From the IMG/VR virus record IMGVR_UViG_2648501392_000012: a stretch of DNA of 24,753 nucleotides; one strand, 5' to 3'. Positions 9,892 to 17,272 of this stretch are shown one piece after another. Position numbers and translations under genes: made by a program. The number at the start of each line of letters is the position of its first letter. Positions within the stretch are counted from its first letter, which is position 1. Below the pieces are notes generated by a model. That model did not search any database. It was not told the origin of the DNA and saw nothing but the letters and a program-made list of their open reading frames with translations. The DNA comes from a virus (taxonomy: Duplodnaviria; Heunggongvirae; Uroviricota; Caudoviricetes).

Positions 9892-10176
9892 GTGATACGA
9901 TGGCGCGTAGTTAGCATTATCGTGTTTATTGTTTCAATCTGGTCTGACCTCTTTGTGTTTTGTTGATGATTTATGTCAAATATTAAGCCTGTTTTTAATG
10001 AATAGTGTTGATTGCGTAACAAAATTGAGCCTTGCTGGCATCCAGGAGGGATATGCAACCGACAGATGTATGTAAGGTCGATGTACTCAAACTTTCATAC
10101 TTTTCCTCTTTTATGCAGTAAGATTTGAAGTAATATTTTAACCGCTAGATGACGAGCAAACGCATGGAGCGACAAA

Positions 10177-10383
10177 ATGAATAAAGAACAATCTGCTGAT
10201 GAACTCTCGTTGGATCTGATTCGTGTAAAAAATATGCTTAATAGCACCATTTCTATGAGTTACCCGGATGTTGTAATTGCATGTATAGAACATCAGGTGT
10301 CTCTGGAAGCATTCAGGGCAATTGAGGCAGCGTTGGTGAAGCACGATAAGAATTCGAAGGATTATTCCCTGGTGGTTGACTGA
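10177..10383 (+). CDS. Hypothetical 68-aa protein
   Basis: [71 protein letters not shown] with GGAG 7 nt upstream of ATG. Confidence 0.5.
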
Positions 10384-10744
10384 GCACCATAACTGCTAAT
10401 CATTCAAACTATTTCACCTGTGACAGAGTCAATATCGCATTCTGTCACTGTCAGGCTAATACAGAGCTGCAATTCAACTACTGCAATGTCCTCGTAATTA
10501 GGTGAATTTACAATATCGTCCTGTTCGGATGCCGGTTGCATTGCTGAAGATGAGGCATTTATGGTTCGCATATTTTCCCCTCATGCTCGTCAGTCCTGTG
10601 CGTAGGAAGAAACAGGACACTCACACTAATTTGTGTGGGCATGCTGTGATGTCCTTCTGAATTATTCCTATGCCATTATGTAAAGCGCTGTATCAGATGC
10701 TCATCACGGCTGTCAGGCTGTCGGGTCCTCCCGGTGGGGGCCCC

Positions 10745-10900
10745 TGCCACGGGGCGGGAGCGTCGCGGAAAAAGGCTAGTTTTTGCATTTCCATGGCGGC
10801 GGCAGCATGTTTGGTAATTTATTGATAATTAAAAGTTATTTCTCTTTTTACCTGTACAATATTTTTTTCTCCCTGTCATTAGACCAGTTTGCAATTAATT
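10745..10900 (+). other. Putative cos packaging-site region (cosN-like GC-rich core plus T-rich TTTCTC elements) upstream of the small terminase gene
   Basis: GGGGCGGGAGCGTCGCGG at 10751..10768 resembles lambda cosN (GGGCGGCGACCTCGCGGG); downstream TTATTTCTCTTTTT and TTTTTTTCTCCCTGTC resemble cosB R elements; position matches lambda organisation. Confidence 0.3.
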
Positions 10901-10947
10901 GAAATATATAAATAAACATGATTTTCACCTGCCAGATGGAGTTGCTT

Positions 10948-11475
10948 ATGTCAAATGTGAGCGGGATCGGTGATGCTTATTACTGGAGTGTTTTTAAAAT
11001 CGCTGAGGCCTTTGGGCTTCACCGGGACACAGTAAAAAAACGGCTCCTCGCGGCCAACACTCCTGTGGCTGCGACTATCAGGGGGAACCCCGTTTACGCC
11101 CTGCAGCATGTCGGGCCAGCCCTGTTTAGTGTGAAGCATGAGGCAGCAGACTCTGTTCATGATCCATCCCGTATGGAGCCGAAAGAGAGAAAGGACTGGT
11201 ACCAATCTGAAAATGAAAGGATCAAGCTGGAAAAGGAGCAGCGAAAACTCATCCCCGTTGATGAAGTAGTCATCGTCTATTCGTCCATGAGAAAGGCTGT
11301 CGTCCAGGTTCTGGAGACAATTCCGGATGTTCTTGAACGCGATTGCGCCCTGACTCCTCAGGCCGTCGGCGTTGTGCAGCAGGCCATTGATGACCTGCGA
11401 TACACTCTTCAGGAAAAATCCTACGAGGCTTGTGCTGCTGAATTAATTCCTGATGAGGAAGGAGAGAGTCTCTAG
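10948..11475 (+). CDS. Terminase small subunit (Nu1-like DNA-packaging protein)
   Basis: About 175-aa acidic protein immediately upstream of the gpA-type large terminase; N-terminal HTH-like region (YWSVFKIAEAFGLHRDTVKKRL); GGAG 7 nt before ATG 10948. Confidence 0.65.
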   Translation: MSNVSGIGDAYYWSVFKIAEAFGLHRDTVKKRLLAANTPVAATIRGNPVYALQHVGPALFSVKHEAADSVHDPSRMEPKERKDWYQSENERIKLEKEQRKLIPVDEVVIVYSSMRKAVVQVLETIPDVLERDCALTPQAVGVVQQAIDDLRYTLQEKSYEACAAELIPDEEGESL

Positions 11476-11483
11476 GAGGAATA

Positions 11484-13583
11484 ATGGGTTTTTCATCAGC
11501 CCGAAATTTGGGAAGGGACATATCGGCAGGATTTTCCCCACCACGTCGCATGCCGATTTCGGAGGCTGTTAAAAAATTCATGCGTGTTCCCAAGGGGGCT
11601 GGTAACTCGGTGCCATGGGATCCTGAACTGACACCCTACATCATTGAGCCCATGAACTGCCTGGCATCGCGTGAATACGATGCGGTGATTTTTGTTGGTC
11701 CTGCGCGAACAGGGAAGACCATTGGTCTGATCGATGGATGGATTGTCTATACCATCGTTTGCGATCCTTCGGACATGCTCGTTGTGCAGATGACCGAAGA
11801 TAAGGCCCGCGAGCATTCTAAAAAGCGCCTCGACAGAACGTTCAGAAGCAGTGCGGCGGTAAAGAAAAGAATGAGTCCACGTCGTAACGACAATAATGTC
11901 CATGATAAGACGTTCAGGGATGGCTCGTTCCTTAAAATTGGTTGGCCCTCGGTCAACATTATGTCGTCGTCGGATTACCGGTTTGTCGCCTTAACCGATT
12001 ACGACCGTTTTCCGGAGAATATCGACAGCGAGGGTGATGGTTTCTCCCTGGCCTCAAAACGTACCACCACATTTATGTCCGCCGGGATGACTCTGGTGGA
12101 GAGCTCGCCGGGACGTGACATCTGCGACAGCAAATGGCGACGTAAGTCGCCTCATGAAGCGCCACCGACGACTGGTATTCTTTCCCTTTACAATCGTGGT
12201 GACCGCCGCCGCTGGTACTGGTCATGTCCGCACTGCGGTGAATATTTTCAGCCAGCCATGGATGCCATGACCGGCTACCGTAATGAACCGGATCCCTTTA
12301 AAGCCAGTGAGGCGGCGTATCTACTTTGCCCGCACTGCAGCGGCATTATCACTGCGGAGAAAAAGCGTGAGCTCAATAGTGCAGGAGTCTGGTTGCGTGA
12401 AGGTCAGGTCATTGATCGTAACGGCAACGTTTCCGGTGAACCGCGCCGCTCCCGTATCGCCAGTTTCTGGATGGAAGGGCCAGCTGCTGCGTATCAGACC
12501 TGGGCGCAACTGGTTTACAAATTACTGACTGCAGAACAGGAGTATGAAGCGACAGGAAGCGAAGAAACACTCAGGGCGGTTATCAACACCGACTGGGGAT
12601 TGCCTTATCTTCCTCGTGCCAGCATGGAGCAACGAAAAAGTGAACTGCTTGAGCAGCGGGCAGAGCCAGTTCCTTCCCGCAGTGTGCCGGATGGCGTTAA
12701 TTTCCTTGTGGCGACAGTGGATGTGCAGGCGGGACGTCATCGCCGTTTTGTGGTTCAGGTAACGGGCTATGGCAGTCGTGGCGAACGCTGGATTATTGAT
12801 CGTTACAACATCACGCAGTCATTGCGCAGTGACTGCGACGGGGAGAGCCAGCGAATTGATCCGGCCAGCTATCCGGAAGACTGGGATGTCCTGCTGACGG
12901 ATGTTTTTCATAAAAGCTGGCCGCTGGCCTCCGATCCTTCTCAACAAATGCGACTGATGGCAATGGCGGTGGACTCCGGCGGTGAAGACGGGGTCACTGA
13001 TAATGCCTATAAATTCTGGCGTCGTTGCCGTCGTGATGGCCTTGGTAAACGTATTTACCTGTTTAAGGGTGACAGCATCCGGCGCGCAAAACTGATCAGC
13101 CGTACATTCCCTGATAACACCGGACGAACGGGCCGCCGGGCGCAGGCCGCAGGTGATGTGCCGCTCTGGCTTCTTCAGACGGATGCCCTGAAAGACCGGG
13201 TGAATAACGCGTTATGGCGTGACTCGCCAGGTCCAGGCTATGTGCATTTCCCTGACTGGCTGGGGAGCTGGTTTTACGACGAACTGACGTATGAAGAGCG
13301 GAGCAGTGACGGGAAATGGAGTAAGCCGGGTCGCGGTGCCAACGAAGCTTTTGACCTGATGGTGTATGCCGAGGCTCTGGTCATTCTGCATGGATACGAA
13401 AAGATCCGCTGGCCGGATGCACCGGAATGGGCGAGCCGGGAGACCTGGCTGGAGTGTGTCCAGGACAGTACCGAACCGTCATCCTCACCGGAACCGGTAT
13501 CCACGCCTGTTAAAAAACAAAAACGGAAGAAAACAGTAACTGACGATGTTAACCCCTGGCTGACTTCCGGAGGATGGTTATGA
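11484..13583 (+). CDS. Terminase large subunit, lambda gpA family
   Basis: 699-aa ORF; Walker A motif VGPARTGKT; AGGAGG ribosome-binding site; CxxC...CxxC segment (CPHCGEYF...CPHCSG) as in gpA. Confidence 0.9.
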   Translation: MGFSSARNLGRDISAGFSPPRRMPISEAVKKFMRVPKGAGNSVPWDPELTPYIIEPMNCLASREYDAVIFVGPARTGKTIGLIDGWIVYTIVCDPSDMLVVQMTEDKAREHSKKRLDRTFRSSAAVKKRMSPRRNDNNVHDKTFRDGSFLKIGWPSVNIMSSSDYRFVALTDYDRFPENIDSEGDGFSLASKRTTTFMSAGMTLVESSPGRDICDSKWRRKSPHEAPPTTGILSLYNRGDRRRWYWSCPHCGEYFQPAMDAMTGYRNEPDPFKASEAAYLLCPHCSGIITAEKKRELNSAGVWLREGQVIDRNGNVSGEPRRSRIASFWMEGPAAAYQTWAQLVYKLLTAEQEYEATGSEETLRAVINTDWGLPYLPRASMEQRKSELLEQRAEPVPSRSVPDGVNFLVATVDVQAGRHRRFVVQVTGYGSRGERWIIDRYNITQSLRSDCDGESQRIDPASYPEDWDVLLTDVFHKSWPLASDPSQQMRLMAMAVDSGGEDGVTDNAYKFWRRCRRDGLGKRIYLFKGDSIRRAKLISRTFPDNTGRTGRRAQAAGDVPLWLLQTDALKDRVNNALWRDSPGPGYVHFPDWLGSWFYDELTYEERSSDGKWSKPGRGANEAFDLMVYAEALVILHGYEKIRWPDAPEWASRETWLECVQDSTEPSSSPEPVSTPVKKQKRKKTVTDDVNPWLTSGGWL

Positions 13584-13792: not shown

Positions 13793-15300
13793 TGGCAATT
13801 CTTGATGATGTGATTGGCGTTTTTTCACCAGGATGGAAAGCAGCAAGGCTGCGTTCCCGTGCGGTGATCCAGGCTTATGAGGCCGTAAAAACGACGCGGA
13901 CACACAAAGCCCGACGGGAGAACCGAACTGCCGACCAGTTAAGCCAGTACGGGGCCGTGTCGTTACGTGAGCAGGCCCGTTACCTTGATAACAACCACGA
14001 TCTGGTTATTGGTGTATTTGACAAGCTGGAAGAACGGGTGGTGGGGAAAAACGGGATTATTGTCGAGCCACATCCGGTATTACGCAATGGGGCCATTGCC
14101 CGTGACCTGGCTGCGGAGATTCGCACCCGATGGAGTGAATGGTCTGTCAGCCCGGAAGTCACCGGGCAGTTTACCCGTCCGATGCTGGAACGTCTGATGC
14201 TTCGTACCTGGCTGCGCGATGGTGAGGTGTTTGCCCAGATGGTTTCCGGGCGCATAAACAGCCTGGCGCCTTCTGCCGGTGTTCATTTCTGGCTGGAGGC
14301 GCTCGAGCCGGACTTTATTCCCATGACCAGTGATGAGAGCAACAGGCTGAATCAGGGCGTGTTTGTTGATGACTGGGGGCGTCCCGAAAAATATCTGGTG
14401 TATAAAAGCCGTCCCGTATCCGGACGGCAGATGGAAACCAAAGAAGTGGATGCAGAGCGAATGCTGCATCTTAAATTTGTTCGCCGTCTGCACCAGATGC
14501 GCGGGACGTCTTTGTTGTCCGGTGTGCTGATCCGCCTCAGTGCCCTGAAAGAATATGAAGATTCTGAGCTGACTGCAGCAAGGATCGCCGCTGCTCTGGG
14601 GATGTACATCCGGAAAGGCGACGGGCAGAGCTATGAACCGGATGGTAATGGCAGAAAGGAGAATGAACGTGAGCTTACCATTCAGCCGGGCATTATTTAC
14701 GACGATCTGAAACCCGGCGAAGAAATCGGAATGGTGAAGTCGGATCGCCCCAATCCTAACCTTGAAACTTTTCGTAATGGTCAGTTGCGTGCCGTGGCGG
14801 CGGGCAGTCGTCTGAGTTTTTCCAGTACAGCGCGCAACTATAACGGCACTTACAGCGCCCAGCGTCAGGAGCTGGTTGAATCCACTGATGGCTACCTGAT
14901 CCTGCAGGACTGGTTTATTGGTGCCGTCACCCGCCCGATGTATCGTGCATGGCTGAAACAGGCTGTGGCATCCGGTGTTATCAGGCTACCCCGCGATCTT
15001 GACCGTTCTTCACTGTATACCGCGGTGTATTCCGGACCAGTGATGCCGTGGATTGACCCTGTTAAGGAGGCTGAGGCCTGGAAAATCCAGATTCGTGGTG
15101 GAGCGGCGACAGAATCAGACTGGGTACGTGCTGGTGGTCGTAATCCGGATGATGTCAAACGTCGGCGCAAGGCCGAAATTGATGAAAACCGCAAGCTGGA
15201 TCTGGTATTTGATACCGATCCGGCCAGTGATAAAGGAGGCAGTAGTGCCGCAACGAAACGACAGGAGCCGCAGCACACCGACGACCAGTCCGAAGAATAA
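13792..15300 (+). CDS. Portal protein, lambda gpB family
   Basis: 502-aa ORF from ATG 13792, overlapping the gpW stop (TGATG); size and position match lambda portal. Confidence 0.85.
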   Translation: MAILDDVIGVFSPGWKAARLRSRAVIQAYEAVKTTRTHKARRENRTADQLSQYGAVSLREQARYLDNNHDLVIGVFDKLEERVVGKNGIIVEPHPVLRNGAIARDLAAEIRTRWSEWSVSPEVTGQFTRPMLERLMLRTWLRDGEVFAQMVSGRINSLAPSAGVHFWLEALEPDFIPMTSDESNRLNQGVFVDDWGRPEKYLVYKSRPVSGRQMETKEVDAERMLHLKFVRRLHQMRGTSLLSGVLIRLSALKEYEDSELTAARIAAALGMYIRKGDGQSYEPDGNGRKENERELTIQPGIIYDDLKPGEEIGMVKSDRPNPNLETFRNGQLRAVAAGSRLSFSSTARNYNGTYSAQRQELVESTDGYLILQDWFIGAVTRPMYRAWLKQAVASGVIRLPRDLDRSSLYTAVYSGPVMPWIDPVKEAEAWKIQIRGGAATESDWVRAGGRNPDDVKRRRKAEIDENRKLDLVFDTDPASDKGGSSAATKRQEPQHTDDQSEE

Positions 15301-15313
15301 TTCCTGGTTCAGG

Positions 15314-17272
15314 ATGCAGGCTGGTCACCAGAGTGACGCGGATATTTATATTTATGACGAGATTGGTTTCTGGGGTGTTACAGCGAAGCAGTTTATCAGT
15401 GATCTGAATGCACTGGGCGATATCACCCACATTAATCTCCATATTAATTCACCGGGTGGCGATGTCTTTGAAGGCATCGCCATTTTTAATGCGCTGAAAA
15501 CACATGGTGCGTCCATTACCGTTTATGTCGACGGTGTGGCGGCGTCAATGGCGTCGGTCATTGCGATGGTAGGAAACCCGGTCATTATGCCGGAAAACAC
15601 CTTCATGATGATTCATAAACCATTTGGCTTTACGGGCGGTGATGCGGAGGACATGCGCACCTATGCCGACCTGCTCGATAAAGTTGAGGCGGTTCTGTTA
15701 CCCGCTTATGCACAGAAAACCGGGAAAACCACCGATGAAATTGCTGCCATGCTGGCGGATGAGACCTGGATGTCCGGTGCCGAATGTCTGGCACAGGGAT
15801 TTGCTGATCAGGTGACACCAGCCGTTAAGGCAATGGCATGTATTCAGTCAAAACGTACAGAGGAATTTAAAAAGATGCCGGAATCCATTCGAAATATGAT
15901 TACTCCGCCACGCAACAGTGCTCCACGCGTACAGGATGATGGACCTGCAGCCTCCCGGACGCCAGTGCAGGCAGCAGCACCCGTGGTGGATGAAAACAGC
16001 ATCCGTGCGCAGGTCTTGGCAGAGCAAAAAGCGCGTGTAAACGGTATTAATGATCTGTTTGCCATGTTTGGCGGGCGTTATCAGTCGTTGCAGACTCAGT
16101 GTCTTGCCGATCCTGAATGTTCGCTGGAGCAGGCCCGCGAAAAGCTGTTGAACGAGATGGGGCGCGAGTCCACGCCATCCAATAAAAATACCCCGGCTCA
16201 TATTTATGCCGGTAACGGTAATTTTGTGGGGGACGGGATCCGCCAGGCGCTGATGGCGCGCGCCGGGTTTGAAAAAACTGAACGTGATAATGTCTACAAC
16301 GGGATGACCCTGCGTGAATATGCCCGTATGTCACTGACTGAACGTGGTATTGGTGTTTCCAGTTATAACCCGATGCAGATGGTCGGTGCGGCGTTCACAC
16401 ACAGTACGTCTGACTTCGGTAATATTCTGCTGGATGTTGCGAACAAAGCCATTCTGCAGGGCTGGGAAGATGCCCCTGAAACCTATGAACAGTGGACGCG
16501 GAAAGGTCAGTTGTCTGATTTTAAAATTGCCCATCGTGTGGGTATGGGGGGCTTCAGTGCTCTGCGTCAGGTGCGTGAAGGGGCAGAATATAAATACGTC
16601 ACCACCGGAGATAAACAGGCCACTATTGCACTGGCGACCTATGGCGAGCTGTTCAGTATCACCCGTCAGGCCATTATCAATGATGATCTGAATATGCTGA
16701 CCGATGTCCCGATGAAGCTGGGCCGTGCGGCGAAATCCACTATTGCCGATCTGATTTATGCCATTCTGACGTCTAACCCGAAAATCTCCACAGATAATGT
16801 AAGTCTGTTCGATAAAGCGAAACATGCAAACGTACTGGAGAGCGCGGCAATGGACGTGGCATCGCTGGATAAAGCCCGCCAGTTGATGCGCGTTCAGAAA
16901 GAGGGTGAGCGTCATCTGAATATTCGTCCTGCGTTCGTACTGGTACCGACGGCGATGGAGTCTGTTGCTAACCAGGTCATTCGCTCCTCAAGTGTCAAGG
17001 GGGCTGACATTAACGCCGGTATTATTAACCCGGTGAAAGATTTTGCGACCGTTATTGCAGAGCCTCGTCTTGATGATAACAGCCAGACCACCTTCTACCT
17101 GGCTGCGTCCAAAGGCTCCGATACGATTGAAGTGGCTTATCTCAACGGTGTGGATACGCCATATATTGATCAGATGGAGGGCTTCAGTGTGGATGGCGTG
17201 ACAACGAAAGTGCGTATTGACGCTGGTGTTGCGCCAGTTGATCACCGCGGCCTGGTGAAATGTACGGCGTAA
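15314..17272 (+). CDS. Tripartite capsid gene: ClpP/S49-type prohead protease, scaffold-like linker and HK97-fold major capsid protein in one ORF
   Basis: N-terminal ...IYIYDEIGFWGVTAKQFISDLNAL...INSPGGDVFEGIAIFNALK...VDGVAASMASVIAMVG (ClpP-like); central Ala/Gln-rich linker; C-terminal ~350 aa capsid-like; start placed at the in-frame ATG just after the portal stop. Confidence 0.8.
   Translation: MQAGHQSDADIYIYDEIGFWGVTAKQFISDLNALGDITHINLHINSPGGDVFEGIAIFNALKTHGASITVYVDGVAASMASVIAMVGNPVIMPENTFMMIHKPFGFTGGDAEDMRTYADLLDKVEAVLLPAYAQKTGKTTDEIAAMLADETWMSGAECLAQGFADQVTPAVKAMACIQSKRTEEFKKMPESIRNMITPPRNSAPRVQDDGPAASRTPVQAAAPVVDENSIRAQVLAEQKARVNGINDLFAMFGGRYQSLQTQCLADPECSLEQAREKLLNEMGRESTPSNKNTPAHIYAGNGNFVGDGIRQALMARAGFEKTERDNVYNGMTLREYARMSLTERGIGVSSYNPMQMVGAAFTHSTSDFGNILLDVANKAILQGWEDAPETYEQWTRKGQLSDFKIAHRVGMGGFSALRQVREGAEYKYVTTGDKQATIALATYGELFSITRQAIINDDLNMLTDVPMKLGRAAKSTIADLIYAILTSNPKISTDNVSLFDKAKHANVLESAAMDVASLDKARQLMRVQKEGERHLNIRPAFVLVPTAMESVANQVIRSSSVKGADINAGIINPVKDFATVIAEPRLDDNSQTTFYLAASKGSDTIEVAYLNGVDTPYIDQMEGFSVDGVTTKVRIDAGVAPVDHRGLVKCTA

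Follow-up and report, generated by a model that had tools for sequence, protein, structure and literature searches.

Organization of the locus

The stretch of DNA analysed here (24.7 kb, or 24,753 nucleotides in full; hereafter referred to as the window) is the late-gene and head-gene segment of a lambdoid prophage of E. coli. It contains a gap of 564 bp that runs from the stop codon of a 68-residue YbcW-like open reading frame (ORF), which ends at position 10383 and is itself preceded by a DUF1398 (YbcV-like) gene, to the start codon of the small terminase subunit (TerS; ATG at 10948). On the 3′ side of the gap, family matches identified a DUF1441 TerS, a large terminase subunit (TerL) of the lambda gpA family, a lambda-family portal protein and a fusion of a ClpP-type protease with the capsid protein. 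All four ORFs are full length and match their families strongly. The fusion is a single ORF of 739 residues (15053–17272) in which a ClpP-type protease domain is joined to a major capsid domain, as has been described for Gifsy-2-type heads. The two terminase genes are as follows:

10948–11475, + strand: TerS, DUF1441
11484–13583, + strand: TerL, 699 residues, lambda gpA family (ATPase and endonuclease; PF05876, 4e-80; PF20454, 2e-86)

The start of TerS is likely to be the conserved ATG at 10948, which is preceded by GGAG at 10938–10941. A 185-residue ORF call begins instead at an ATG at 10918, where nearly all relatives have CTG. The window carries minority alleles at two positions, T at 10849 and A at 10918, where most of the 71 related sequences (see below) have C; it is the A at 10918 that gives rise to the upstream in-frame ATG and hence to the longer ORF call.

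Three ORFs of 51–55 residues lie within the gap, none of which has a Pfam match. Only near-identical relatives have two of these ORFs intact, and the remaining one overlaps the conserved DNA described below. All three were ruled out as genes, being without family matches and not conserved independently of the DNA; the preliminary description of this DNA had called a stretch of about 560 bp here non-coding. Scans of 9900–11100 returned no Rfam family and no terminator, and promoter-like sites occurred there at chance level. Of 5,426 complete E. coli genomes, 624 contain at least 80% of the segment 10384–11475.

The cosQ–cosN segment

The GC fraction peaks at 0.83 in 10720–10759 and falls to 0.20–0.30 across 10800–10920. 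A GC-rich block (10750–10768, in which the string GGGGCGGGAGCGTCGCGG occupies 10751–10768) is thus followed, inside the gap 5′ of TerS, by the A/T-rich section that the preliminary description had noted. The block had been likened to lambda cosN with substitutions in the 12-nt cohesive end, and alignment with lambda bore this out, placing both cosQ and cosN with the contexts of the two nicks kept:

10723–10729, + strand: cosQ (GGGTCCT), packaging-termination signal, the same heptamer as at the homologous position in lambda
10750–10765, + strand: cosN core, CG-GGGCGGGAGCGT-CG, aligned with lambda ACG-GGGCGGCGACCT-CGC
10751/10752 (top strand) and 10763/10764 (bottom strand): predicted nicks, from the cosN alignment
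10752–10763, + strand: predicted 12-nt 5′ cohesive end GGGCGGGAGCGT, from the lambda alignment and the ends of the cdtI and Tritos records

Written out, lambda reads GGGTCCT-N23-GGGCGGCGACCT-CGCGGG and the window GGGTCCT-N22-GGGCGGGAGCGT-CGCGGA. The distance from the end of cosQ to the top-strand nick is thus 22 nt in the window compared with 23 nt in lambda, within the range of about 20–25 bp taken here for a lambda-like cos, and the nick and the TerS start are 197 bp apart, compared with 191 bp in lambda. The cohesive end's left half, GGGCGG, is the same in both, and the CG dinucleotides that flank the two nick positions, 12 bp apart, are kept. Substitutions relative to lambda occur at positions 7, 8, 9 and 11 of the cohesive end only, and a single difference, at position 7, separates it from the cohesive end of Gifsy-1 (GGGCGGCAGCGT). 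The rotational symmetry of cosN extends over 8 of 16 positions in the window and 10 of 16 in lambda.

In lambda-like cosN sites the CG dinucleotides flanking the nicks are conserved; natural variation affects positions 7–12, and the left half and the CG flanks, like cosQ, are maintained (PMC4669245). For Gifsy-1, differences from lambda have been reported at positions 8, 9 and 11 of the cohesive end (PMC4669245). As judged by alignment, the four substitutions of the window fall in the change-tolerant right half of cosN, in agreement with the published pattern of variation, and the GC-rich block is the positional homologue of lambda cosQ–cosN, far beyond what chance would give. The exact 12-mer GGGCGGGAGCGT was found in no searchable paper in a phage context.

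Departures from this plan were observed among the more distant relatives. In Gifsy-2 (locus L091 of our comparison set), Fels-1 (L092) and loci L089, L008, L096, L098 and L100, the cosQ position reads AAAGGTACTCC, not CGGGTCCTCC; in the literature, cosQ has been described as having no apparent natural variation. The cosN region of VT1-Sakai (L094, about 570–585) reads GGGCGGGCGGGCGCGG, one base short of the expected length, and that of Gifsy-2 (L091, about 600–613) has GGTGGCTTCGGGCT between a conserved CCACG and CGCGGG. These two cosN regions may be defective or variant cos sites.

Architecture of cosB

The DNA between cosN and TerS (cosB) was aligned across the window, relatives whose TerS proteins are 83, 75, 67, 63, 61 and 56% identical to that of the window, and Fels-1, Gifsy-2, VT1-Sakai, LLS and lambda, with MAFFT used for the I1 match. 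A common plan is apparent, in which CGCGG, an A tract, GGC and a T tract are followed by a CATG-N10-CATG-like element and an IHF-type sequence. In the window, the following elements were assigned:

10764–10791, + strand: I2-like spacer CGCGGAAAAAGGCTAGTTTTTGCATTTC with A5 and T5 tracts, kept in all relatives with a DUF1441 TerS
10792–10809 (bp 41–58 from the nick), + strand: R3-equivalent CATG-GCGGCGGCAG-CATG, aligned with R3 of the relatives
10815–10827, − strand: I1-equivalent predicted IHF site TATCAATAAATTA, perfect match to WATCAANNNNTTR
10850–10858, + strand: R2-position element ACCTGTACA with palindromic core TGTACA, provisional; the relatives have an inverted R2 at bp ~92–103
10871–10888, + strand: R1-position element CCCTGTCATTAGACCAGT, identical in the 83% relative
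10926–10935, + strand: fourth R-like element CACCTGCCAG, just 5′ of the TerS ribosome-binding site

The I2 segment of lambda is likewise AT-rich, with poly-dA/dT tracts (PMC4856287). The predicted IHF site, which lies between cosN and TerS as in a lambda-like cosB, is the only perfect match to WATCAANNNNTTR in the whole 24.7-kb window, and in the MAFFT alignment it falls opposite the lambda I1 segment TAACTTAATGTTT. The I1-like sequence occurs a second time after the R1-position element, at 10887–10905. The CATG-GCGGCGGCAG-CATG element at 10792–10809 is, from its position in the alignment, the candidate primary binding site of TerS.

In most relatives the R3-position sequence recurs twice, inverted at bp ~92–103 and direct at bp ~117–126, and the resulting layout of direct R3, inverted R2 and direct R1 is significant across the relatives (combined Fisher p=4.6e-8). 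An equivalent recurrence of the R3-position sequence 3′ in the window did not reach significance (p=0.22 for the R3-position element versus the R2 and R1 elements; p=1.0 in the 83% relative). In the window, the R2, R1 and fourth positions are instead occupied by CCTG(Y)(N)CA elements, which resemble one another and are unlike the R3-position element. The R2-position element is kept as ATCTGCACA in the 83% relative, the R1-position element aligns with Providencia R1 (GCTGTCACCTCAA), and the fourth R-like element is kept in both the 83% and the 89% relatives. In the closer TerS subfamily, an inverted R-like copy is also found at bp ~174–187, by the ribosome-binding site of terS; it occurs in Providencia, in Trabulsiella and in the relatives with 75, 67, 63 and 61% TerS identity. 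Overall, cosB of the window is only modestly richer in repeats than shuffled sequences, with 37 repeat pairs compared with 20 ± 9 and with 13 of 300 shuffles reaching 37. The assignment of TerS sites within this cosB is provisional. The fourth R-like element could couple TerS binding to the expression of terS.

The preliminary description had placed TTTCTC-containing repeats where lambda has its R elements. Two copies do lie near the R2 and R1 positions, one at 10839–10844, 5′ of the R2-position element, and one at 10866–10871, abutting the R1-position element. As a conserved repeat core, however, TTTCTC was rejected: the window has 23 copies of it, its register does not match that of the CCTGT cores, and it is only partly kept in the 83% relative.

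Two other arrangements were observed in this region. In Trabulsiella guamensis (L008, 636–790), a tandem duplication of ~78 bp in cosB covers the R3-like element, the IHF-like sequence and the inverted repeat. The 89% relative (L095, JGI Ga0207655_1000690, 560–960) encodes a TerS 89% identical to that of the window, followed by TerL, and has no recognisable cosQ or cosN 5′ of TerS; its homology to the window starts at TTAGACCAG, inside cosB, a part of the R1-position element that it still retains.

The terminase and its recognition helix

TerL is 24% identical to lambda gpA over 627 residues (E=3e-22). The type of terminase predicts the type of genome end, and terminases of the gpA family are cos enzymes (PMC12315714). 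TerS shows no significant similarity to lambda Nu1 by BLASTP (E=4.6), and hhalign gave a weak match only, over the helix-turn-helix. Searching the PDB with the TerS sequence returned nothing meaningful, and fold comparison alone was informative; the N terminus of TerS is predicted to be a winged helix (wHTH fold). The specificity classes of lambda and phage 21 are marked by a Nu1-like TerS and matching R sequences in cosB; the window has a DUF1441 TerS and a cosB without similarity to the lambda R sites.

Across the family, the repeat sequence at the R3 position, which in the window is the central 10 bp of the CATG-N10-CATG element, changes together with the recognition helix of TerS:

Helix HRDTVKKRL (window): R3-position sequence GCGGCGGCAG
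Helix DRK[AS]V[KR]RRL: R3-position sequence GGGACACCAC
Helix DRATVRK: R3-position sequence GCATCATCAG
Helix NRGTVKKRL: R3-position sequence CTGTCAGCAG
Helix HRQTV..: R3-position sequence CATCATCAT

A scan of genome contigs for TerS returned two loci only. A contig binned in a Veillonella parvula metagenome-assembled genome (L007, JAGZPX010000007.1) encodes a TerS 100% identical to that of the window and in all likelihood represents an E. coli prophage assigned to the wrong bin.

Deposited genome ends and closest known systems

A megablast search of the gap against phage records showed that the records of two phages are linearised exactly at the predicted nick. Position 1 of the phage cdtI record (AB285204 / NC_009514) corresponds to 10752 of the window, and the linear Tritos record (OV696610) ends at the equivalent of 10751 and begins with the 12 nt GGGCGGGAGCGT. 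By this correspondence, the site in the window is the element that defines the deposited ends of cdtI and Tritos, whether these ends were mapped or assigned by analogy with lambda. Together with the adjacent gpA-family TerL, this coincidence supports the proposal of a cos site. A metagenome scan yielded 39 contigs with a window-type cos, none of which ends at the nick; the IMG/VR matches are prophage regions and hence uninformative on physical ends.

The two phages are also the closest relatives of the window in this region. They have the same 12-nt end and the same cosQ, their TerS proteins are 99.4% identical to that of the window, and the DNA from the nick to TerS is 97.6–98.6% identical, with a few point differences, among them the T at 10849 and the A at 10918 of the window. 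Leftwards of cosQ the relationship is mosaic, and Tritos has one additional copy of CTGTCAGG just 5′ of cosQ.

Lambda, by contrast, has a Nu1 TerS in place of a DUF1441 TerS; its cosB is unrelated in sequence to that of the window, which shows no similarity to the lambda R sites, and it lacks the fourth R-like element by the TerS ribosome-binding site. Of the Gifsy phages named for comparison in the preliminary description, Gifsy-1 has a cohesive end (GGGCGGCAGCGT) one base different from that of the window, and its cosQ is also GGGTCCT. However, its TerS is of the Nu1 type, its head genes are phage-21-like and its cosB is unrelated. Membership of Gifsy-1 in the DUF1441 group was ruled out on the basis of this TerS and these head genes; only its cosN is close.

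A third set, comprising mEp213/LLS, mEp460, Fels-1, Gifsy-2 and VT1-Sakai, shares with the window a DUF1441 TerS and the fused protease–capsid module, the spacer of CGCGG, A tract, GGC and T tract, and the R3-I1-R2-R1 layout with matching distances, as far as the provisional R assignments in the window go. A cosN identical to that of the window is carried by the mEp460-type prophage of E. coli C5 and by many IMG/VR contigs. The TerS proteins of the set are, however, only ~33–42% identical to that of the window, and the R repeats differ from those of the window, being CATCATCAT in Fels-1, VT1 and LLS and TCGACACTGAA in Gifsy-2. LLS has the cohesive end GGGCGGCGCGCT, and several members of the set have AGGTACTCC at the cosQ position.

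Conservation and modular exchange

Conservation was assessed over 71 distinct upstream sequences from 80 IMG/VR loci with near-identical TerS. These are near-invariant from about 10720 (cosQ) rightwards and mosaic leftwards, and cosQ forms the left edge of a conserved island that is common to the mosaic relatives. A cosQ–cosN island of 38–70 bp is shared by phages that are otherwise unrelated in the region; in E. coli genomes and phage records it spans 10722–10791, or even only 10748–10785, with differing sequence on both sides. Within the island, variation falls in the palindromic stretch between cosQ and cosN.

An identical 24-nt cosN segment (GGGCGGGAGCGTCGCGGAAAAAGG) is present in more than 120 IMG/VR contigs, where at least four cosB/TerS modules come after it: that of the window (~38 contigs), the mEp460 type (~64), a third (~18) and a fourth (1). 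The joint at which these modules have been exchanged lies at ~10785–10787 of the window, about 34–36 bp to the right of the nick. Loci L103, L189, L193 and L132 illustrate an identical cosQ–cosN with different cosB/TerS modules in prophages of E. coli, and the TerS proteins of the other modules are ~42% identical to that of the window.

Since an identical cosN occurs with at least four cosB/TerS modules, packaging specificity would lie in cosB and TerS and not in the cohesive end. By analogy with lambda and phage 21, cosN would thus be generic and the cosB/TerS pair would carry the specificity. The preliminary description had ascribed the packaging specificity of this phage family to the site with the altered cohesive end, and had suggested a difference from both lambda and phage 21. 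The location in the cohesive end is not supported; the difference is, since TerS belongs to DUF1441 and not to the Nu1 family. The class represented by the window very probably differs in packaging specificity from lambda, phage 21 and Gifsy-1, which all have Nu1-type TerS proteins, and very probably also from the mEp213, mEp460, Fels-1 and Gifsy-2 groups.

Further repeats were noted, mostly to the left of cosQ. The hexamer CTGTCA is locally enriched, with 5 of the 22 copies in the window located in 10421–10878 (~12 copies are expected for the whole window); the region concerned includes 10417–10455, 10448–10457, 10710–10719 and 10873–10878. The sequence CTGTCAGGCT is repeated exactly at 10448 and 10710, and an imperfect hairpin at 10417–10455 folds better than shuffled sequences (z=−2.4). 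Lambda 47946–48090 and the first part of this region are 87% identical, and the motif is therefore not tied to the DUF1441 type of TerS.

Model and alternative explanations

The homology and spacing of cosQ and cosN, the coincidence with deposited genome ends, the families of the adjacent terminase subunits, the IHF consensus and the repeat layout common to the family together indicate a cos site at 10723–10947, belonging to a lambdoid E. coli prophage of the cdtI/Tritos type, a reading that we hold with high confidence and from which we infer its use in this prophage. Against it count the 39 metagenome contigs of which none ends at the nick, the R3-position element of the window and of the 83% relative, which is not significantly similar to the R2- and R1-position elements, and the lack of significant similarity between TerS and Nu1. 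During lytic growth, the N-terminal winged-helix domain of TerS would bind cosB (about 10792–10935), assisted by an IHF-induced bend at 10815–10827 and by the A/T-tract spacer, with the R sites presumably among the elements listed above. TerS on cosB would anchor the gpA-family TerL on cosN, where it is predicted to nick the top strand at 10751/10752 and the bottom strand at 10763/10764, generating 12-nt 5′ cohesive ends (GGGCGGGAGCGT). Packaging would then proceed rightwards, with the terminase genes entering first, and would stop at the next cos on the concatemer, for which cosQ (10723–10729) and cosN would be required.

The strongest competing explanation is that the site is a genuine cos by descent and is now an unused relic, the prophage being defective or not inducible. 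Many lambdoid prophages of E. coli are defective, and both minority alleles of the window, 10849 T and 10918 A, lie inside cosB. Decay of this kind is nevertheless unlikely: the head and terminase ORFs (TerS, TerL, portal and protease–capsid) are full length, and cosQ, cosN, the IHF site and the candidate R elements are intact and 97–98% identical to those of cdtI and Tritos.

We consider it very unlikely that the site is a cos whose cut positions or overhang depart from the 12 nt of lambda, for example through shifted nicks or an overhang of 10–11 nt. The CG-N12-CG context is kept exactly, the cdtI and Tritos records follow the precise 12-nt convention, and the LLS record, from a phage with a DUF1441/gpA-type terminase, annotates a 12-nt 5′ extension (PMC12315714). 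These observations outweigh the limited identity of TerL to gpA (24%), the distance of 22 rather than 23 nt from cosQ to the nick, and the oddities of cosN in related prophages, where VT1-Sakai is one base shorter and Gifsy-2 divergent.

That the GC-rich block is not a cos at all, and is instead a pac site, a terminator, a hairpin with a regulatory role or a piece of a small gene, is hardly credible: hypothetical ORFs are annotated across the block in the HannyBb and mEp460 records, a 51-residue ORF (10670–10825) spans it and it contains an 8-bp palindrome (GGGGCCCC), but the region has no terminator-like sites and no Rfam match, the ORFs are without family matches and show no conservation beyond that of the DNA, the palindromic stretch separating cosQ from cosN is the part of the island that varies, and, in place of the headful-type terminase and lack of fixed cohesive ends expected of a pac phage, the site is homologous to cosN and the TerL belongs to the gpA family, whose members are cos enzymes (PMC12315714).

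Implications

The site interpreted here as cos is already known, being an ordinary member of the well-described family of lambda-like cos sites. Its position fixes the ends of the virion genome and the direction of packaging for a prophage type that is found in 624 of 5,426 E. coli genomes, and is of use in annotating prophages, in linearising assemblies and in predicting which helper phages are able to mobilise cos-bearing satellites. The understanding of packaging is unchanged, since the site fits the established lambda model and the known variation of the right half of cosN.

A further reading joins three elements: that the DUF1441 lambdoids comprise several specificity classes built on one cosN, that the cosB of the window is atypical within them, and that the fourth R-like element, overlapping the ribosome-binding region of terS, couples TerS binding to terS expression. 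The atypical character of cosB may lie in its R3-position CATG-N10-CATG element, which is unrelated to the CCTG(Y)(N)CA elements. None of the three is described in the searchable open literature, and we put the combination forward only tentatively, as a possibility that we consider somewhat doubtful. The occurrence of one cosN with several cosB/TerS modules provides a natural set for the study of TerS–cosB specificity in the little-studied DUF1441 family.
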